Shown: positions 604 to 10,829 of the stretch, in pieces
Position numbering within the stretch: the stretch's first letter is position 1
How the letters are laid out: each line of letters starts with the position of its first letter
Assembly (NCBI RefSeq): GCF_000027125.1
Contig: NC_017626.1
Direction: 5' to 3' (one strand)
Source: Escherichia coli 042
Lineage (GTDB): Bacteria; Pseudomonadota; Gammaproteobacteria; Enterobacterales; Enterobacteriaceae
DNA length: 64,000 bases
Position numbers and translations under genes: made by a program
The notes under the pieces: model-generated
What the model was told of the DNA's origin: nothing
The model's input: only the letters and a program-made list of their open reading frames with translations
Databases searched by the model: none

Positions 604-3600
604 ATGGGTAAAGGAAGCAGTAAGGGGCATACCCCGCGCGAAGCGAAGGACAACCTGAAATCCACGCAATTACTGAGTGTGATCGATGCCATCAGCGAAG
701 GGCCGATTGAAGGTCCGGTGGATGGATTAAAAAGCGTGCTGCTGAACAGTACACCGGTGCTGGACAGTGAGGGGAATACCAACATCTCCGGTGTCACGGT
801 GGTGTTCCGGGCAGGTGAGCAGGAGCAGACACCGCCGGAGGGATTTGAATCCTCCGGTTCCGAGACGGTGCTGGGTACGGAAGTGAAATACGACACGCCG
901 ATCACCCGGACCATCACGTCTGCAAACATCGACCGTCTGCGCTTTACCTTCGGTGTGCAGGCTCTGGTGGAAACCACCTCAAAGGGGGACCGGAATCCGT
1001 CGGAAGTCCGCCTGCTGGTTCAGATACAACGTAACGGTGGCTGGGTGACGGAAAAAGACATCACCATTAAGGGCAAAACCACCTCGCAGTATCTGGCCTC
1101 GGTGGTGGTGGGTAACCTGCCGCCGCGCCCGTTTAATATCCGGATGCGCAGAATGACGCCGGACAGCACCACAGACCAGCTGCAGAACAAAACGCTCTGG
1201 TCGTCATACACCGAAATCATCGATGTGAAACAGTGCTACCCGAACACGGCACTGGTCGGCGTGCAGGTGGATTCGGAGCAGTTCGGCAGCCAGCAGGTGA
1301 GCCGTAATTATCATCTGCGCGGGCGTATTCTGCAGGTGCCGTCGAATTATAACCCGCAGACGCGGCAATACAGCGGTATCTGGGACGGAACGTTTAAACC
1401 GGCATACAGCAACAACATGGCCTGGTGTCTGTGGGATATGCTGACCCATCCGCGCTACGGCATGGGGAAACGTCTTGGTGCGGCGGATGTGGATAAATGG
1501 GCGCTGTATGTCATCGGCCAGAATTGCGACCAGTCGGTGCCGGATGGCTTTGGTGGCACGGAGCCGCGTATTACCTGTAATGCGTACCTGACCACGCAGC
1601 GCAAGGCGTGGGATGTGCTCAGTGATTTCTGCTCGGCGATGCGCTGTATGCCGGTATGGAACGGGCAGACGCTGACGTTTGTGCAGGACCGGCCATCGGA
1701 TAAGGTGTGGACCTATAACCGCAGTAATGTGGTGATGCCGGATGATGGCGCGCCGTTCCGCTACAGCTTCAGCGCCCTGAAAGACCGCCATAATGCCGTT
1801 GAGGTGAACTGGATTGACCCGAACAACGGCTGGGAGACGGCGACAGAGCTTGTGGAGGATACGCAGGCCATTGCCCGTTACGGTCGTAACGTCACGAAGA
1901 TGGATGCTTTTGGCTGTACCAGCCGGGGGCAGGCACACCGCGCCGGGCTGTGGCTGATTAAAACAGAACTGCTGGAAACGCAGACCGTGGACTTCAGCGT
2001 GGGCGCAGAAGGGCTTCGCCATGTGCCGGGCGATGTCATTGAAATCTGTGATGATGACTATGCCGGTATCAGCACCGGCGGGCGCGTGCTGGCGGTAAAC
2101 AGCCAGACCCGGACGCTGACGCTCGACCGTGAAATCACGCTGCCATCCTCCGGCACCACGCTGATAAGCCTGGTTGACGGACAGGGGAATCCGGTCAGCG
2201 TGGAGGTCCAGTCCGTCACCGACGGCGTGAAGGTGAAAGTGAGCCGTGTTCCTGACGGCGTTGCCGAATACAGCGTGTGGGGGCTGAAGCTGCCGACGCT
2301 GCGCCAGCGCCTGTTCCGCTGCGTGAGTATCCGTGAAAACGATGACGGCACGTATGCCATCACCGCCGTGCAGCATGTACCGGAAAAAGAAGCCATCGTG
2401 GATAACGGGGCGCACTTTGACGGCGACCAGAGCGGCACGGTGAATGGTGTCACGCCGCCAGCGGTGCAGCACCTGACTGCCGAAGTCACCGCAGACAGCG
2501 GGGAGTATCAGGTACTGGCCCGCTGGGACACGCCGAAGGTGGTGAAGGGGGTGAGCTTTATGCTTCGCCTGACCGTGGCAGCGGATGACGGCAGTGAGCG
2601 GCTGGTCAGCACGGCCAGGACGACGGAAACCACATACCGCTTCACGCAACTGGCGCTGGGAAACTACAGGCTGACAGTCCGGGCGGCAAATGCCTGGGGG
2701 CAGCAGGGCGATCCGGCATCGGTATCGTTCCGGATTGCCGCACCGGCAGCGCCGTCGCGGATTGAGCTGACGCCGGGCTATTTTCAGATAACCGCCACGC
2801 CGTATCTTGCCGTTTATGATCCGACGGTACAGTTTGAGTTCTGGTTCTCAGAAAAGCGGATTGCGGATATCAGGCAGGTTGAAACCGCAGCCCGCTATCT
2901 TGGCTCGGCGCTGTACTGGATAGCTGCCAGTATCAATATCAAGCCGGGCCATGATTATTATTTTTATATCCGCAGTGTGAATACTGTTGGCAAATCGGCA
3001 TTCGTGGAGGCTGTCGGTCGGGCGAGCGATGATGCGGAAGGTTACCTGGATTTTTTCAAAGGAGAAATCGGGAAAACACATCTGGCCCAGGAGCTGTGGA
3101 CGCAGATTGATAACGGTCAGCTTGCGCCGGACCTGGCTGAAATCAGGACGTCCATTACGAATGTCAGCAATGAAATCACGCAGACCGTCAATAAAAAACT
3201 GGAAAATCAGAGTGCGGCAATCCAGCAGATACAGAAAGTTCAGGTTGATACAAATAATAACCTGAACAGCATGTGGGCCGTGAAACTGCAGCAGATGCAG
3301 GACGGACGCCTTTATATTGCGGGTATCGGTGCCGGTATTGAGAATACGCCAGCAGGAATGCAGAGTCAGGTGCTGCTGGCGGCAGACAGGATTGCGATGA
3401 TTAATCCTGCGAATGGCAACACAAAGCCGATGTTTGTTGGTCAGGGCGATCAGATATTTATGAATGAAGTGTTCCTGAAATATCTGACGGCTCCCACCAT
3501 TACCAGCGGCGGTAATCCTCCGGCATTTTCCCTGACACCGGACGGGCGGCTGACGGCGAAAAATGCCGATATCAGCGGTAACGTGAATGCGAACTCCGGG

Positions 3601-4083
3601 ACGCTCAACAACGTCACGATTAACGAGAACTGTCGGGTTCTGGGAAAATTGTCCGCGAACCAGATTGAAGGCGATCTCGTTAAAACAGTGGGCAAAGCTT
3701 TCCCCCGGGACTCCCGTGCACCGGAGCGGTGGCCATCAGGAACCATTACCGTCAGGGTTTATGACGATCAGCCGTTTGACCGGCAGATTGTTATTCCGGC
3801 GGTGGCATTCAGCGGCGCTAAACATGAGAAAGAGCATACTGATATTTACTCCTCATGCCGTCTGATAGTGCGGAAAAACGGTGCTGAAATTTATAACCGT
3901 ACCGCGCTGGATAATACGCTGATTTACAGTGGTGTTATTGATATGCCTGCCGGTCACGGTCACATGACACTGGAGTTTTCGGTGTCAGCATGGCTGGTAA
4001 ATAACTGGTATCCCACAGCAAGTATCAGCGATTTGCTGGTTGTGGTGATGAAGAAAGCCACTGCAGGCATCACGATTAGCTGA
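604..4083 (+). CDS. J: Host specificity protein J (central tail fibre / tip attachment protein)
   Basis: 1159 aa ORF; N-terminus [38 protein letters not shown] matches my recollection of lambda J; size and position before lom fit. SD-like gagg upstream of ATG. Confidence 0.95.
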
Positions 4084-4100
4084 ATTTTATAACCCAGATA

Positions 4101-4128
4101 CGGGCGCCAGAAATGGCGCCTTTTTTAT
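4101..4128 (+). terminator. Rho-independent terminator after J
   Basis: ggcgcc-agaaat-ggcgcc hairpin followed by tttttt. Confidence 0.5.
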
Positions 4129-4150
4129 TGCAGAAAAGCGAGAGGTAATT

Positions 4151-4750
4151 ATGCGTAAATTATGTGCTGTTATTTTGTCCGCAGTAGTCTGGCAGGTCGC
4201 CGCTGCTACGCCAGCGAGTGCAGCAGAACATCAGTCCACGCTGAGCGCGGGGTATCTCCATGCCTCGACGAACGTTCCCGGTAGTGATGATCTGAACGGG
4301 ATTAACGTGAAATACCGTTATGAGTTTACGGACGCGCTGGGGCTGATTACGTCCTTCAGTTATGCCAATGCTGAGGATGAGCAAAAAACGCGCTACAGCG
4401 ATACCCGCTGGCATGAAGATTCCGTGCGTAACCGCTGGTTCAGCGTGATGGCGGGGCCGTCTGTACGCGTGAATGAATGGTTCAGCGCGTATGCGATGGT
4501 GGGTGTGGCTTACAGCCGTGTGTCGACTTTCTCCGGGGATTATCTCCGCGTAACTGACAACAAGGGGAAAACGCACGATGTGCTGACCGGAAGTGATGAC
4601 GGTCGCCACAGCAACACGTCTCTGGCGTGGGGGGCTGGCGTGCAGTTTAATCCGACCGAATCCGTGACCATTGACCTTGCTTATGAAGGTTCCGGTAGTG
4701 GCGACTGGCGAACGGATGCATTTATTGTTGGTATCGGATACCGTTTCTGA
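4151..4750 (+). CDS. lom: Lom/Ail/PagC-family outer membrane beta-barrel protein
   Basis: 199 aa, signal peptide ending ASA-AE, C-terminal GYRF beta-barrel signature, position immediately after J as in lambda. Confidence 0.9.
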   Translation: MRKLCAVILSAVVWQVAAATPASAAEHQSTLSAGYLHASTNVPGSDDLNGINVKYRYEFTDALGLITSFSYANAEDEQKTRYSDTRWHEDSVRNRWFSVMAGPSVRVNEWFSAYAMVGVAYSRVSTFSGDYLRVTDNKGKTHDVLTGSDDGRHSNTSLAWGAGVQFNPTESVTIDLAYEGSGSGDWRTDAFIVGIGYRF

Positions 4751-4853
4751 CAACAGACGCCGATTTATCTTCTGTAAATATTGTTATGATACGCAGGTTC
4801 ATCCACCTTATGGGGTGAACTGCGTTTGAGGAAACGTAAAGTTACACTGTCCT

Positions 4854-4888
4854 GAAGCCCGTGGCGTCACTGCTGCGGGCTTTTTTTA
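4854..4888 (+). terminator. Rho-independent terminator after lom
   Basis: aagcccg..cgggctt stem followed by ttttttt. Confidence 0.5.
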
Positions 4889-4901
4889 TTGGTGGAAAAG
4901 T

Positions 4902-7900
4902 ATGACAGTAAAAATTTCTGGCGTGCTTAAAGATGGCACAGGAAAACCAGTACAGAACTGCACCATTGTGCTGAAGGCCAGACGAACCAGCAGCACGGTG
5001 GTGGTGAACACGGTGGCCTCTGAAAATCCGGATGAAGCCGGACGTTACAGCATGGATGTTGAGCATGGTCAGTACAGCGTCACCCTGCTGGTTGAAGGTT
5101 TTCCGCCTTCACATGCCGGGACCATTACCGTCTATGAAGGTTCCAGATCAGGTACGCTGAATGATTTTCTCGGTGCCATGACGGAGGATGATGTCCGACC
5201 GGAGGCACTGCGCCGCTTTGAGCAGATGGTGGAAGAGGTGTCACGTAACGCCTCCGCGGTTGCACAGAATACGGCAGCCGCGAAAAAATCAGCCAGCGAT
5301 GCCAGTGCATCAGCCAGCGAGGCGGCAACTCATGCAACCGATGCTGCAGCCTCAGCACGTGCCGCCAGCACGTCAGCCGGACAGGCCGCGTCGTCGGCTC
5401 AGTCAGCGTCTTCCAGCGCAGGAACGGCATCGACAAAGACCCGTGAAGCAGCAAAAAGTGCTGCTGCTGCAGAGTCATCAAAAAGCGCGGCAGCTACCAG
5501 CGCCAGTGCCGCGAAAACGTCAGAAACGAATGCCGCAGCATCACAAAAATCGGCAGCCACTTCTGCATCCACAGCGACCACGAAGGCGTCAGAAGCTGCC
5601 ACCTCGGCACGGGGTGCGGCGGCCTCAAAAGAGGCAGCGAAATCTTCAGAAACGAATGCATCATCAAGTGCCAGTAGTGCAGCTTCCTCGGCAACGGCGG
5701 CAGGAAATTCCGCGAAGGCGGCAAAAACGTCCGAGACGAACGCTAAGTCTTCTGAAACAGCAGCGGGACAGAGCGCCTCAGCTGCGGCAGGTTCAAAAAC
5801 AGCGGCTGCATTATCTGCCAGTGCCGCGTCAACAAGTGCCGGGCAGGCCTCAGCCAGTGCCACCGCCGCCGGAAAATCGGCAGAAAGCGCCGCATCATCC
5901 GCTTCAACAGCCACAACGAAGGCTGGCAAAGCCACTGAGCAAGCCACTGCAGCAGCGAGGTCTGCTTCTGCAGCAAAAACCTCTGAAACAAATGCAAAGA
6001 CTTCAGCAGACAATGCTGCTTCCTCTAAGGCGGCAGCCGCATCGTCAGCCAGTTCAGCGGCGTCATCGGCATCATCTGCGTCTGCTTCAAAAGATGAGGC
6101 GACCAGACAAGCGTCAGCAGCGAAAGGTAGTGCCACGACAGCAACAACGAAAGCATCAGAGGCGGCAGGCAGTGCGACGGCTGCATCTCAGAGCAAAGTT
6201 GCTGCTGAATCCGCGGCAACGCGCGCCGAGACAGCAGCAAAACGGGCAGAGGATATTGCATCCGCCGTGGCGCTGGAGGATGCGAGCACGACGAAAAAGG
6301 GGATAGTACAGCTCAGCAGTGCAACAAACAGCACCAGTGAAAAGCTGGCGGCAACGCCAAAGGCAGTTAAAACTGTTAAAGATAGTTCAGTTCAAAAAAC
6401 TGGCGACACAATGGGAGGGCAGTTAAAAATCAGCACGATAAATGCTCTTCGAATATTCAACCAAGCCTTTGGCCTTATTTTTAGGCGTTCCGAAGATCAT
6501 CTTCATCTTATTCCGACTAATGAAGGGGAGGGGGAAAATGGAGACATCGGTTCATTAAGACCATTCTCTATAAACTTAAGATCAGGGTTGGTGTCCATCG
6601 GTAATGGACTAAAAGTTGGTGGTAGTGTTACTGGTAATTTGACCGGAAACGCAGATACTGCGACCAAGATCAAGACAGCACGTAAGATTGGGGGCGTGGC
6701 ATTTGATGGATCGGCAGATATCAACTTGCCTGGAGTCAACGCTACCGGTAATCAAAACACTACAGGTAATGCTGCGACCGCCACGAAACTTCAGGCAGCC
6801 AGAACGATTAACGGTGTGTCATTTGATGGTAGTGCAAATATCACATTGACCCCTTCAAATATTGGGGCATTGGCATTAACTGGAGGGACTCTTTCAGGTG
6901 GTTTAACTGCTGCTGGTGAGGTTATTTCAAGGTCAGCAAATGGTCTGCGTATTGCCTATGGCAACTATGGATTCTTTATCCGAAATGATGGATCAAACAC
7001 ATATTTTATGTTGACAGATTCGGGTAACAGTCTTGGTACGCACAATAGCTTAAGGCCGTTTATAATTAGTAACCATACTGGCAATGTTACAATTGCAACT
7101 AAATTAAACGCGAGTGGTGGTATCACTGGATCTTTATCGGGTAATGCAAGCACAGCAACCAAATTGCAAACTGCAAGGACAATTAACGGCGTAAAATTTG
7201 ACGGCTCGGCAAATATTGAAGCGTTTCCGCCAGGTGTTCCGCTGCCGTGGCCATCAGATACACCACCTGCAGGTTATGCAATCATGCAGGGGCAGACGTT
7301 TGATAAGGCAGCATATCCGAAACTGGCTATTGCCTATCCTTCAGGTGTTATTCCAGATATGCGCGGCTGGACAATCAAGGGCAAACCCGCCAGTGGCCGG
7401 GCCGTATTGTCTCAGGAACAGGACGGCATTAAATCGCACACCCACAGCGCCAGCGCATCCAGTACGGATTTGGGGACGAAAAACACATCGTCGTTTGATT
7501 ACGGAACCAAATCCACGAATAACACCGGGGCGCATACCCATAGTATTAGCGGGACTGCAAATAGTGCCGGTGCGCACCAACACAAGAGTTCCGGTGCATT
7601 TGGTGGCACGAACACGAGCATTTTCCCTAATGGTTATACCGCGATTTCAAATCTAAGCGCGGGGATTATGAGCACAACAAGCGGTAGTGGCCTGACTCGT
7701 AATGCAGGGAAGACATCATCAGATGGTGCTCATACCCACTCGCTGTCCGGCACTGCTGCAAGCGCAGGCGCACATGCACATACTGTCGGTATTGGTGCTC
7801 ATACGCACTCCGTTGCGATTGGCTCACATGGACACACCATCACCGTTAACGCTGCTGGTAACGCGGAAAACACCGTCAAAAACATCGCATTTAACTATAT

Positions 7901-7916
7901 TGTGAGGCTTGCATAA
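4902..7916 (+). CDS. stf: Side tail fibre protein
   Basis: 1004 aa; N-terminus [22 protein letters not shown] and C-terminus ..[18 protein letters not shown] resemble lambda Stf from memory; long Ala/Ser/Thr-rich low-complexity shaft; three tandem ~38-aa repeats (TGNxxTATKxxTARxIxGVxFDGSAxI) at about 6600-7210; cluster of His-x-His motifs near the C-terminal tip. Confidence 0.92.
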
Positions 7917-8500
7917 TGGTATTCAGAATGAGTGAACAACCACGGACCATAACAATTTATAATCTGCTGGCCGGAACTAATGAATTTATTGGTGAAGGTG
8001 ATGCATATATTCCGCCTCATACAGGTCTGCCAGCAAACAGTACCGATATTGCACCGCCAGATATTCCGGCAGGCTTCGTGGCTGTTTTCAACAGTGATGA
8101 GGCATCGTGGCATCTCGTTGAAGATCATCGGGGTAAAACGGTTTATGACGTGGCTTCCGGCGACGCGTTATTTATTTCTGAACTCGGTCCGTTACCGGAA
8201 AATGTTACCTGGTTATCGCCGGAAGGGGAGTTTCAGAAGTGGAACGGCACAGCCTGGGTGAAGGATACGGAAGCAGAAAAACTGTTCCGGATCCGGGAGG
8301 CGGAAGAAACAAAAAACAACCTGATGCAGGTAGCCAGTGAGCATATTGCGCCGCTTCAGGATGCTGCAGATCTGGAAATTGCAACGGAGGAAGAAACCTC
8401 ATTGCTGGAAGCCTGGAAAAAGTATCGGGTGTTGCTGAACCGTGTTGATACATCAACTGCACCTGATATTGAGTGGCCTACGAACCCTGTCAGGGAGTAA
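7916..8500 (+). CDS. tfa: Tail fibre assembly protein (chaperone)
   Basis: 194 aa, start overlaps stf stop; sequence [54 protein letters not shown] matches recalled lambda Tfa almost residue for residue. Confidence 0.93.
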
Positions 8501-8554: not shown

Positions 8555-9223
8555 CTATTTTTTCCCTGAAGCGGAAAACATTACTACAGTACCTTGAACC
8601 TTGGTTTTAACATTCTCGAAATGCTCTGAGAGTATATGTGTTAAGCCTTCTTCGGAATCTTTTGTGTTTGAAAAGATGCCTTTCTGATTGTAAATGCGCA
8701 TCAGTTTTTGACCGAAGCTATTGTGCACAACTCCATCGCCAAGAATTGTGGCTCCGTATAGAGTTCCATCGTCAGTTAAGGCCTGCGCCGCATTGCGTAT
8801 TACACAGCTTTTTGTAGATATATTTCCAGGCAGGCAGTGAAGAAGGTAAAACATGGAAATGGAATCAAATTGACCATGTAACGCCGCGGGATAAGGTTCA
8901 AAAACATCATGGCTAATTTTATGTTTAATTTTTGATTCCCCAGCCCTTGTAGATGCCGCGTTCAGGCTAGCTTCGTTCAAATCCATTAAAGATATCAGAC
9001 TACTCTCAGGTACGTGAGTAAGGTAAAACCCAGTTCCAACACCAATATCCAGATGGTTGTTACCTAAATGTTCCAGAAAGTGTGGAAGAAGGTGTTCCTT
9101 TGTAGGACATCCCCATGCAAGCCGATTTGATACTCCCAAAACCCACCAGTCATAAAGCTTTAGGGTAAGTGGTGTGTAAATTTTAGCCCCATCATCTGTG
9201 TTTTTTTTCATTAATTTCACCAT
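8555..9223 (-). CDS. Class I SAM-dependent methyltransferase (putative), prophage cargo gene
   Basis: 222 aa ORF. Motif I LDIGVGTG, acidic post-I ISLMDLN, motif II FDSISMFYLLHCLP, motif III LTDDGTLYGATIL in canonical order. Visibly AT-rich versus neighbours. Likely true start is the second Met (MKKNTDDG, about 9211) which has a GGTGA SD-like sequence upstream. Substrate unknown. Confidence 0.65.
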   Translation of the reverse strand: MVKLMKKNTDDGAKIYTPLTLKLYDWWVLGVSNRLAWGCPTKEHLLPHFLEHLGNNHLDIGVGTGFYLTHVPESSLISLMDLNEASLNAASTRAGESKIKHKISHDVFEPYPAALHGQFDSISMFYLLHCLPGNISTKSCVIRNAAQALTDDGTLYGATILGDGVVHNSFGQKLMRIYNQKGIFSNTKDSEEGLTHILSEHFENVKTKVQGTVVMFSASGKK

Positions 9224-9279: not shown

Positions 9280-9549
9280 ATGCTGCCGCAGCATAGCGAT
9301 ATTGAAATAGCCTGGTATGCTTCGATACAGCAGGAGCCGAATGGCTGGAAGACCGTCACCACACAGTTCTACATCCAGGAATTCAGTGAGTATATTGCGC
9401 CACTGCAGGATGCTGTAGATCTGGAAATCGCAACGGAGGAAGAAAGATCGTTGCTGGAGGCATGGAATAAATATCGGGTATTGTTGAATCGTGTTGATAC
9501 ATCAACTGCACCTGATATTGAGTGGCCTGCAAATCCTGTCAGGGAGTAA
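9280..9549 (+). CDS. Truncated or divergent tail fibre assembly protein homolog (tfa-prime, 89 aa)
   Basis: C-terminal 52 aa nearly identical to Tfa ([51 protein letters not shown]); N-terminus unrelated and short; good SD aagggg 5 nt before ATG. Could be a functional mini-chaperone or a remnant. Confidence 0.5.
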
Positions 9550-10135: not shown

Positions 10136-10263
10136 GAAACCTACCAGTCTGGTACATGGATATCGATACCACCGCCAATTATAAGCTGGGCGGTGCACAG
10201 CAACACGATAGCGTACGCCTCGATCCGTGGGTGTTTATGTTCTCAGCAGGATATCGTTTTTAA
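10136..10263 (+). pseudogene. ompW: 3-prime fragment of ompW (last ~42 codons) at the prophage-chromosome junction
   Basis: In-frame translation ..WYMDIDTTANYKLGGAQQHDSVRLDPWVFMFSAGYRF-stop matches the OmpW C-terminus as recalled; an in-frame TGA lies just upstream (about 10133) and sequence 5-prime of it is phage-like and AT-rich; yciE follows as in K-12. Confidence 0.8.
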
Positions 10264-10322: not shown

Positions 10323-10829
10323 TTATTTCTTCGCTTCTACGCCATCAGTTTCAGAGCGAATTAAAAATTTCTCAGTTGTTTGCGGAATATGCTGAATCAG
10401 CCAGTCGGCCATTTCTTTTTCCTCATTTAAAATCGCTTCGATGGTTGGAATTGAAGCTGTATCACCGGCATTTTTTGCTGCTGCTAATAGTGAGGTGTAA
10501 CAGGCGATTTCAAATTGCTCGAAGACATATCCGCTAATAGAGCCTTTGACTATTTCATCAGAAGGGAATATACCACCGATTGACTGCCCAAGCGCAGCCA
10601 TTTTACTCATGGAATCTTTAATGACTGAACGTGAAATGTCATTACGATCAAGAATAGTTTCCAGTTGAACAATCTGGTTTTTGGTTTCACTAAGATGTTG
10701 TTCAATACGAGCGCGTAGTTCAGGATAATTATCTATACGACTAGCCATGGATTCAAGCATAGATTCGGCTTGCTTTTCCATTGCGTGGGCGTCACGTAAC
10801 CAGTCATGATAATGTTCAATACGATTCAT
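10323..10829 (-). CDS. yciE: YciE, ferritin-like stress protein (DUF892)
   Basis: 168 aa ORF; recognised sequence and K-12 synteny. Confidence 0.93.
   Translation of the reverse strand: MNRIEHYHDWLRDAHAMEKQAESMLESMASRIDNYPELRARIEQHLSETKNQIVQLETILDRNDISRSVIKDSMSKMAALGQSIGGIFPSDEIVKGSISGYVFEQFEIACYTSLLAAAKNAGDTASIPTIEAILNEEKEMADWLIQHIPQTTEKFLIRSETDGVEAKK

Follow-up and report, generated by a model that had tools for sequence, protein, structure and literature searches.

A modular lambda-type side tail fibre gene with a T4 gp37-like tip in an Escherichia coli prophage

One of the closest described relatives of the gene analysed here is the stf of Ur-lambda, whose product counts 774 aa and which is represented by orf-401 and orf-314 in lambda PaPa. 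In lambda-type phages, each virion bears four Stf trimers, by which adsorption is accelerated. In Ur-lambda, the Stf N-domain builds a 12-copy collar where gpV meets gpM, and residues 102–393 form the proximal coiled coil (PMC12617516). The distal part of such fibres has its counterpart in T4 gp37, which in turn is devoid of the lambda-type N-domain and coiled coil and joins gp36; H929 of gp37 is described as an iron ligand (PMC6957217). Fibre proteins of the contractile-tail phages P1/P7 (S) and Mu (S), as well as T4 gp34, differ from Stf in their N-termini, yet in the middle module, the only part that we compared, they share with it a junction box and a knob-plus-GNAxTATKL-repeat module. In P7, the C-terminal part of S is located on an invertible C-segment, while none was noticed beside stf here.

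Locus, docking domain and shaft

The window, i.e., the whole stretch of 64,000 nt of E. coli 042 DNA that was analysed, contains the following features around the gene:

4854..4883, + strand: terminator-like hairpin with a T-run in the lom/stf gap (13-bp stem, best match of a consensus scan; putative)
4902..7916, + strand: stf, side tail fibre gene, 1004 aa (ORF from ATG to TAA)
7916..8500, + strand: tfa, tail fibre assembly chaperone gene, 194 aa (Pfam PF02413 Caudo_TAP, E=2e-44)

The assignment of this ORF to side tail fibres, made earlier in a sequence-only reading, was borne out by the Pfam PF08400 phage_tail_N domain (aa 1–134, E=1e-68), by the match to PDB 9e7m (E=4e-46) and by the flanking J-lom and tfa genes. 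We found that the gene order J, lom, stf, tfa is the one of lambda, as seen both in the ORF map and in the annotated identical locus. The prophage is inserted at ompW in the E. coli chromosome and retains a complete set of head and tail genes, with J-lom-stf-tfa at its right end. The start of tfa overlaps the stf stop codon, and its product shares 94% of its residues with lambda Tfa and 29% with T4 gp38 (E=6.5e-17), which is likewise encoded directly downstream of its fibre gene. Neither Stf nor Tfa matched an NCBIfam family, and a PADLOC scan of the neighbouring methyltransferase gave no match to defence systems. The terminator-like hairpin ends 18 nt 5' of the stf ATG; we do not regard it as strong counter-evidence, since antitermination operates in the late transcription of lambda.

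Five RefSeq E. coli records contain the stf sequence at full length and 100% identity, and the one of them that was read lists it under the accession WP_000216506.1 with the product name "prophage tail fiber N-terminal domain-containing protein"; at least 80% of the sequence is present in 422 genomes. We conclude that 4902–7916 is a real ORF, namely an ordinary intact stf of a lambda-like prophage. As the family is already well described, the gene is a good example and not a discovery.

The proximal half of the protein is composed of the following parts:

4902..5183, + strand: N-terminal tail-docking domain, aa 1–94 (PDB 9e7m/9mgh lambda tail fibre chain, E=4e-46)
5202..6311, + strand: Ala-core coiled-coil shaft, aa 101–470, 53 uninterrupted heptads
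5811..6125, + strand: extra stretch relative to lambda Stf, 105 aa or 15 heptads, aa 304–408 (global alignment, single gap)

Ala, Ser and Thr together make up 54–78% of each 50-aa block of the shaft from aa 101 to 450. The top lags of its autocorrelation are all multiples of 7, and its Fourier peaks fall at 3.49, 2.33 and 7.04 residues. One heptad position is occupied by Ala in 47 of the 53 heptads, with no shift of register; three residues ahead of it, Ala occurs in 35/53 heptads, and the position directly preceding that one is Ser in 37/53. The shaft is thus a coiled coil with a strict heptad repeat, not disordered low complexity. An earlier description of this part as a low-complexity shaft of about 350 aa was right as to its richness in Ala, Ser and Thr, while the length (about 370 aa) and the strict periodicity call for correction.

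We determined that the shaft is homologous to the lambda proximal coiled coil and collinear with it apart from a single gap of 105 aa. Stf 1–303 corresponds to lambda 1–303 (83% identity) and Stf 409–500 to lambda 304–395 (77%), the exact position of the gap being arbitrary owing to the repetitive sequence around it. The same long shaft is found in phage ev099, whose Stf is 89% identical over aa 1–499. Tandem Repeats Finder reported only two trivial short arrays and no DNA-level tandem array in the shaft, which is therefore not a recent DNA-level tandem expansion. With 15 heptads more than in lambda, the shaft would be about 15 nm longer.

Junction box, distal shaft and tip

The distal half comprises the following elements:

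6321..6398, + strand: conserved junction box, aa 474–499 (Pfam PF03406 Phage_fiber_2, E=2.5e-7)
6402..7226, + strand: distal-shaft module with two knobs and three copies of a 26-aa motif, aa 501–775 (Pfam, PDB, T4 gp37 alignment)
6645..6722, + strand: motif copy 1, aa 582–607 (regular-expression match)
6765..6842, + strand: motif copy 2, aa 622–647 (regular-expression match, 40 aa past copy 1)
7140..7217, + strand: motif copy 3, aa 747–772 (regular-expression match, 125 aa past copy 2)
7227..7436, + strand: collar domain, aa 776–845 (Pfam PF07484 Collar, aa 778–825, E=3.6e-10)
7437..7583, + strand: descending half of the needle, HxH 1–3, aa 846–894 (aligned to T4 gp37 HxH pairs)
7584..7730, + strand: hypervariable head cassette of 49 aa, aa 895–943, between HxH 3 and 4 (receptor specificity, by homology)
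7731..7913, + strand: ascending half of the needle with HxH 4–7 and the C-terminus, aa 944–1004 (aligned to T4 gp37)

The junction box is common to lambda Stf and Mu S and falls where R393, an engineered fusion point, lies in lambda Stf; directly after it the likeness to lambda and ev099 stops. Where Ur-lambda Stf possesses a 133-aa module (396–528), the protein studied here carries a 275-aa double-knob module of the T4 gp37/gp34 and P1/P7 S type, while the middle module of ev099 Stf is unrelated to it and about 130 aa longer. The module lies within the collinear alignment of Stf aa 491–1004 with T4 gp37 560–1026 (42.5% identity). It includes a Pfam PF21446 Gp34_trimer domain at aa 620–722 (E=1e-26) and a weak match to a second copy at aa 496–557 (E=0.024), and it matches the structures of Mu S (5yvq, E=3e-30) and T4 gp34 (4uxe, E=2e-17). 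Among phages, it is best matched by P7 Sv' (70%) and by a P1-like phage (65%). The two knobs (approximately aa 501–575 and 666–741) are a duplicate pair with 34% identity (E=5e-11), a relationship seen only by direct pairwise comparison; self-BLAST of the middle region gave no match.

Three strict copies of the motif GNAxTATKxxxARxIxGVxFDGSAxI were retrieved by regular expression. The sequence-only reading had likewise counted three and had taken all of them to be in tandem; this holds for copies 1 and 2, whereas copy 3 is separated from copy 2 by a knob of about 75 aa, the first knob preceding copy 1. A loose version of the expression found 0 copies in lambda Stf, T4 gp37 and gp34; any copies in these proteins would have diverged beyond the reach of that pattern.

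As for the tip, the collar is 83% identical to that of lambda and 77% to that of T4 gp37, and the ascending half of the needle is 77–80% identical to T4 and lambda. Exactly seven HxH motifs lie in the last 159 aa (846, 878, 892, 944, 958, 967 and 976), in agreement with an earlier count of at least seven in the last 170 aa or so, and an eighth, at 533, is unrelated to this cluster. Shuffles of the last 184 aa yield a mean of 0.98 HxH motifs, and 0/10,000 reach seven. In the alignment to T4 gp37, H846/848, H878/880 and H892/894 of the descending half fall on H883/885, H915/917 and H929/931, and H944/946, H958/960, H967/969 and H976/978 of the ascending half on H966/968, H980/982, H989/991 and H998/1000. 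Ur-lambda Stf differs in having eight pairs, and the 10-aa SFDYGTKTTG duplication of lambda is missing here; its collar and needle are 68–83% identical. The tip agrees with the T4 gp37/lambda Stf tip family, which is characterised by a distal tip of about 215 aa, in its conserved flanks (T4 812–931 and 966–1026) and in the gp38/Tfa-type chaperone gene (184–207 aa in the family) directly 3' (PMC9659904).

The segment between HxH 3 and 4 behaves in another way. It is only about 18% identical to the heads of lambda and T4, compared with 68–83% for its flanks, and among 120 homologues the head occurs in length classes of 32–53 aa, as discrete types with mostly unrelated sequences. Its place is that of T4 gp37 932–965, where the residues in contact with OmpC/LPS are found in a head of unrelated sequence and 34 aa, 15 aa shorter than the one here. 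The closest allele, WP_001403614.1 (1008 aa, E. coli strain WP7-S17-ESBL-01), is located in the same prophage context and is 100% identical over 1500 nt upstream and over stf nt 1–2581; the 129 differing positions all fall within nt 2582–2955. The two loci differ only in tip aa 861–985, which is mostly head, and in the start of tfa, which amounts to a cassette replacement of the head between alleles that are the same elsewhere. Among other lambdoid phages, ev099 has an Stf that is 94% identical over aa 773–1004; at the DNA level its tip, head included, shows 98.8% identity, and that of mEp332 97.5%.

Over its full length, the protein is not collinear with lambda Stf, from which it is distinguished by the 105-aa shaft insertion, the longer middle and the unrelated head. 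The earlier proposal that a fibre longer than the 774-aa lambda Stf may have a modular or mosaic tip is therefore correct, and module exchange is seen in the relatives. The module junctions coincide with R393 and S528, the functional engineered fusion points of lambda Stf.

Proposed fibre, its receptor and alternative readings

We are confident that the locus represents an intact stf of a lambda-like prophage, accompanied by tfa and encoding a modular fibre. The identity of the gene, its module boundaries and homologies, the heptad register, the conservation of the His residues and the cassette exchange are seen in the sequences, and we infer that Stf is expressed, forms trimers and binds metal and a receptor. 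Going by the homologous Ur-lambda Stf and T4 gp37, one fibre would be built of three Stf chains; it would be docked on the tail tip by aa 1–94 and continue as the long Ala-core coiled coil of 53 heptads (aa 101–470). Beyond the junction box at aa 474–499, two knob-plus-repeat units (aa 501–775) would make up the distal shaft, followed by the collar and a six-stranded needle (aa 776–1004). The seven HxH pairs of each chain (42 His per trimer) would coordinate seven metal ions, which are iron in T4, and the 49-aa segment between HxH 3 and 4 would form a small head at the far end. Reversible binding of this head to a host receptor would accelerate adsorption before gpJ binds its own receptor, and Tfa would be needed for the folding of the trimeric tip. 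Recombination may change the host range at three conserved sites, namely directly behind the box of aa 474–499, where the collar begins, and within the HxH-bearing needle sequences on either side of the head.

As regards the receptor, lambda and T4 fibre tips use OmpC, and the T4 tip itself also binds LPS, with residues that overlap those for OmpC. Within the same tip family, PhiNP binds LPS Glc-II, and Gifsy-1 Stf, whose tip was left out of our comparison, recognizes LPS core Gal II. Together with the low identity of the head to those of lambda and T4 and its 15 additional residues relative to T4, this brings close to an even chance, in our estimate, the alternative of an otherwise unchanged fibre whose head recognizes, in place of OmpC, a sugar of the LPS core or a different outer-membrane protein. 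Against it, the ligand is not identifiable from sequence, and mEp332, which carries the same head, has E. coli K-12 as its recorded host, though gpJ alone could suffice for that. A literature search on ev099, mEp332 and the PhiR phages returned nothing on the receptor of the shared head type.

It seems improbable that stf is a relic of a defective prophage, never built into particles and retained only as a stock of sequence with which incoming phages may recombine. Defective prophages are frequent in E. coli, and pseudogenes, a tfa fragment among them, are located immediately 3' here; besides, databases contain proteins with the Stf tip fused to terminase or J fragments, and the stf of ev099 has an in-frame stop. 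However, stf is open over all of its 1004 codons, tfa is intact as well, and in a strain with identical stf the structural module is uninterrupted from terminase to tfa. Moreover, 92 of the 130 substitutions that distinguish the shaft from that of ev099 fall at third codon positions of stf, which argues for purifying selection in the stf frame and thereby for the functional, modular fibre.

An HxH cluster that is a mere His-rich motif without metal sites, only superficially like T4, is a reading to which we attach next to no credit. It could draw on the failure of structure prediction: an AF2 linked pseudo-trimer (three times aa 770–1004 with 30-aa GGS linkers and an 11-row tripled alignment) reached a mean pLDDT of 35 and a pTM of 0.22, and the tip monomer (50-sequence alignment) a pLDDT of 47. 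Both models are unusable, and the needle geometry is for that reason taken from homology. Yet, aa 776–1004 match the T4 gp37 crystal structure 2XGF with E=1e-79 and 73–77% identity across collar and needle. All of the HxH His (14/14) align to the seven pairs of T4 with conserved spacing, and they are invariant in alignments of 11 and of 50 homologues, the latter with different head types. The likeness to the T4 needle noted earlier reflects homology and goes beyond mere resemblance.

The codons of the shaft also leave other frames open, as had been suggested from the sequence, and two long ORFs were found there:

5188..6306, + strand: 372-aa +1-frame ORF within the shaft, spurious (no Pfam match; less conserved than Stf)
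5399..6136, - strand: spurious 245-aa antisense ORF over the shaft (no Pfam match; length as in codon shuffles)

In favour of real overlapping genes, the open run of the +1 frame counts 374 codons and exceeds that of 99% of codon shuffles, and comparable ORFs are annotated in public records, i.e., the antisense orf206b over the same region in the lambda reference record and an alternative-frame ORF of this kind in that of ev099. We nevertheless rejected them as almost certainly false, since neither ORF matches any Pfam family, the minus-strand open run has just the length expected from codon shuffles and is explained by composition, the +1 product is conserved to 71% with ev099 against 91% for Stf, and the +1 frame of lambda is broken at 201 codons. 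The Ala/Ser codon content of the shaft accounts for these long ORFs.

Implications for annotation, evolution and engineering

As a discovery, the gene carries little weight, its protein being present in RefSeq and lambda Stf, the T4 gp37 tip and Tfa/gp38 being already characterised. For annotation, it illustrates how an Ala/Ser tract that passes for low complexity is a regular coiled coil of 53 heptads, the codons of which create long false ORFs, and such ORFs stand in public phage records (orf206b of lambda, ev099). In terms of evolution, it exemplifies how specificity shifts when a cassette of about 50 aa, flanked by conserved sequences with HxH, is exchanged and how the length of the shaft varies by whole heptads.

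A wider reading, which we put forward tentatively and hold to be somewhat less probable than its opposite, combines three elements: that the receptor of the head differs from OmpC (e.g., an LPS core sugar or a particular porin allele), that the 15 extra heptads with the double knob extend the reach of the fibre for encapsulated or smooth E. coli, and that the gene is a ready-made donor for retargeting lambda-based delivery particles. The last of these is suggested by the coincidence of the natural junctions with proven engineering sites of lambda Stf. As these junctions are the sites at which engineered lambda Stf chimeras work, prophage alleles of this kind could be mined for host-range engineering.

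The stf gene and its surroundings

The open reading frame at 4902-7916 (+) is a genuine gene, running from ATG to TAA over 1004 aa, and encodes the side tail fibre (Stf) of a lambda-like prophage. Its neighbours are:

604-4083, gpJ homologue, 1159 aa, 5' of stf
4151-4750, Ail/Lom protein (Pfam, E=4e-124), between the gpJ homologue and stf
7916-8500, tfa, Caudo_TAP protein, 194 aa; its start overlaps the stf stop

Five RefSeq E. coli records contain an stf 100% identical to this one, annotated in one of them as WP_000216506.1 ('prophage tail fiber N-terminal domain-containing protein'); the gene is of a well-understood kind and its sequence is already known from RefSeq. In the annotated identical record the structural genes of a lambda-like phage are complete from terminase to tfa, and stf is the last large one among them. 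This module sits at the right end of the prophage, next to which come an ompW remnant, yciE and the trp operon. By the annotation of that strain the remnant, N-terminally truncated, spans ~10138-10263, beside yciE (10323-10829); this truncated copy just past the right end suggests that the prophage inserted in ompW. At least 80% of stf is present in 422 of 5426 complete E. coli genomes, and in the INPHARED collection no isolated phage record reaches 80% coverage of the gene.

Between lom and stf lies a strong terminator-like hairpin (4854-4883, +; 13-bp stem and T-run). It leaves 18 nt to the stf start codon and might shield lom, which is expressed in the lysogen, from the late tail-fibre genes. 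The segment between tfa and the prophage end holds a class I SAM-dependent methyltransferase gene (8555-9223, -) in a region with a GC content of 0.42, below that of the tail genes; it matched no PADLOC defence family and may be a cargo ('moron') gene. The same segment includes an 89-aa ORF (9280-9549, +), the last 63 aa of which are 81% identical to the intact Tfa C-terminus (E=2e-33). RefSeq labels it a tail fibre assembly pseudogene that has lost its N-terminus; a broken DUF4376 gene follows, with fragments up to ~9915, and these remains look like what is left of another tail-fibre cassette, earlier or alternative.

Shaft periodicity and overlapping reading frames

The sequence-only reading described a low-complexity Ala/Ser/Thr-rich shaft. 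The richness holds (over aa 101-450, each 50-aa block is 54-78% A+S+T), the low complexity does not. In the autocorrelation of aa 101-480 all top lags are multiples of 7, and Fourier peaks fall at 3.49, 2.33 and 7.04 residues. With the phase kept constant for the 53 heptads of aa 101-470, Ala occupies one heptad position in 47/53 heptads and the position three residues before it in 35/53, while Ser stands one residue before the latter in 37/53, with no register shift anywhere in this stretch. With its unbroken heptads the shaft is a regular coiled coil; no tandem array is present in it at the DNA level. Global alignment with lambda Stf pairs aa 1-303 with lambda 1-303 (83%) and aa 409-500 with lambda 304-395 (77%), leaving a single 105-aa gap, i.e., exactly 15 heptads, as an extra stretch in the prophage protein.

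The suspicion that this region generates long spurious ORFs was borne out for two frames:

5188-6306 (+), +1 frame of stf, 372 aa
over the shaft (-), 245 aa

Neither has a Pfam match, and both are by-products of the Ala/Ser codon content. The antisense open run has the length given by codon shuffles. The +1 frame is open for 374 codons, a length reached by just 0.8% of codon shuffles, and for 359 codons in the lambdoid phage ev099 (LR597635.1); in lambda it is interrupted. Compared with ev099, the +1-frame product is 71% conserved and Stf 91%, and of the 130 substitutions in the shaft, 92 affect the third position of an stf codon. Purifying selection on the stf frame is shown; the +1 frame bears no sign of protein-level conservation, its long open run being likely due to heptad-repeat dicodon constraints.

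The ev099 stf (3001-6402) is interrupted in frame by a stop at codon 723 and appears in its record as fragments, with three antisense 'hypothetical proteins' over its 5' half. ORFs of the same kind appear in lambda's reference record (orf206b, antisense); they seem to be artefacts of annotating the Ala/Ser coiled-coil region.

Distal shaft module and needle tip

The distal shaft module (aa 501-775) matches Pfam Gp34_trimer (E=1e-26) and the solved structures of T4 gp34 and Mu S; among phages, P7 Sv' (70%) and a P1-like phage (65%) match it best. Of the three tandem repeats claimed for the protein, all three copies of a 26-aa motif are strict matches, only the first two being tandem:

aa 582-607, copy 1
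aa 622-647, copy 2, tandem with copy 1
aa 747-772, copy 3, not tandem

Ahead of copy 1 stands a knob domain of ~75 aa, and copies 2 and 3 are separated by another. Since the knobs precede motif copies and form a 34%-identical pair (aa 501-585 versus 666-750, E=5e-11), the true repeat unit is 'knob plus motif'.

The crystallised tip of T4 gp37 (2XGF) is matched by aa 743-1004 (E=1e-79), and T4 gp37 560-1026 is collinear with aa 491-1004 (42.5%).

Identity of tip segments to lambda Stf and T4 gp37 (three-way alignment)
Collar, aa 776-845: 83% to lambda, 77% to T4
Needle, aa 846-894: 68% to lambda, 73.5% to T4
Head, aa 895-943: ~18% to lambda, ~18% to T4
Needle, aa 944-1004: 80% to lambda, 77% to T4

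At least seven His-x-His (HxH) pairs had been noticed in the last ~170 aa; there are exactly seven in the last 159 aa (846, 878, 892, 944, 958, 967 and 976), while shuffles of the same residues contain ~1 on average and none of 10,000 contains seven. Their likeness to the T4 needle is confirmed, as 14/14 His align to T4 H883/885, 915/917, 929/931, 966/968, 980/982, 989/991 and 998/1000, and none of the 14 varies in two alignments, of 11 and 50 homologues, in which the heads differ. The T4 needle coordinates seven iron atoms along its length, with H929 among the ligands (PMC6957217). AF2 gave pLDDT values of 35 for a linker-joined pseudo-trimer and 47 for the monomer; for the needle, homology is in any case the stronger evidence, identity to the crystal structure being 73-77% and every ligand conserved.

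The protein is, as the earlier reading said, longer than the 774-aa lambda Stf (395+133+246 aa, against 500+275+229). Domain-wise, the 230-aa excess splits into +105 in the shaft, +142 in the middle and -17 in the tip. The lambda C-terminus is 65% identical to aa 764-1004, its 133-residue middle (396-528) has no counterpart here, and its tip contains a 10-aa duplication and an eighth HxH unit, both absent from the prophage protein. The earlier reading was essentially right in what it observed and how it interpreted it, apart from two points: tandem arrangement holds for only two of the three repeats, and the shaft is a regular coiled coil rather than low-complexity sequence.

Module exchange, receptors of relatives and probable mode of action

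The suspected mosaic nature of the tip is supported by its relatives. In the tip's 120 best database homologues, flank identity is typically 86-100%, and the heads sort into discrete length classes of 32-53 aa, in most cases with no similarity detected between them; the 49-aa head type found here occurs in ~40 of the 120 clusters. The middle module is also exchanged. The ev099 protein shares aa 1-499 (89%, equally long shaft) and aa 773-1004 (94%, same head), and its middle is unrelated. The first junction lies right after a conserved 26-residue box (PF03406), the second at the start of the collar; they are the counterparts of R393 and S528, at which engineered lambda Stf chimeras are functional (PMC11338833).

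In database proteins P0043, P0058, P0062, P0065, P0068, P0079 and P0115, the tip, from about one 13-residue stretch onward, is fused to unrelated N-termini: the gpJ C-terminal region in P0062 and P0115, terminase domains in others (precomputed Pfam hits). Most join at almost the same collar point; deletions in decaying prophages could have produced them, or chimeric assembly across a repeated sequence.

The head corresponds to T4 gp37 932-965, a region in which mutagenesis located the residues contacting LPS and OmpC and which is termed the 'receptor specificity domain' of the T4/lambda RBP family (PMC9659904). OmpC is the receptor of lambda Stf and T4 gp37, the latter using LPS too; LPS core sugars are used by PhiNP, which belongs to the tip family, and, outside the set of tips compared, by Gifsy-1 Stf.

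Gene identity, homology, heptad register, module boundaries, His conservation and cassette exchange are direct observations; the mode of action is modelled on lambda and T4. Three Stf chains would form one fibre, their trimerisation chaperoned by Tfa (94% identical to lambda Tfa), with the N-domains joining a 12-copy collar at the gpV/gpM junction. The coiled coil, exceeding that of lambda by ~15 nm, would hold out, together with the double-knob distal shaft, a six-stranded needle locked by seven metal ions, and the head would bind a surface receptor reversibly before gpJ binding.

The closest E. coli allele (WP_001403614.1) is identical in DNA over 1500 nt upstream and stf nt 1-2581. A block of 129 differences is then confined to stf nt 2582-2955 (aa 861-985), and sparse ones follow in the first 250 nt of tfa. 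Against that allele, 14 of the 19 downstream mismatches fall in tfa at window positions 7916-8165, a low-density continuation of the head-replacing patch. This run-on of the recombinant patch into 5' tfa suggests joint exchange of the tip with the N-terminal portion of its chaperone.
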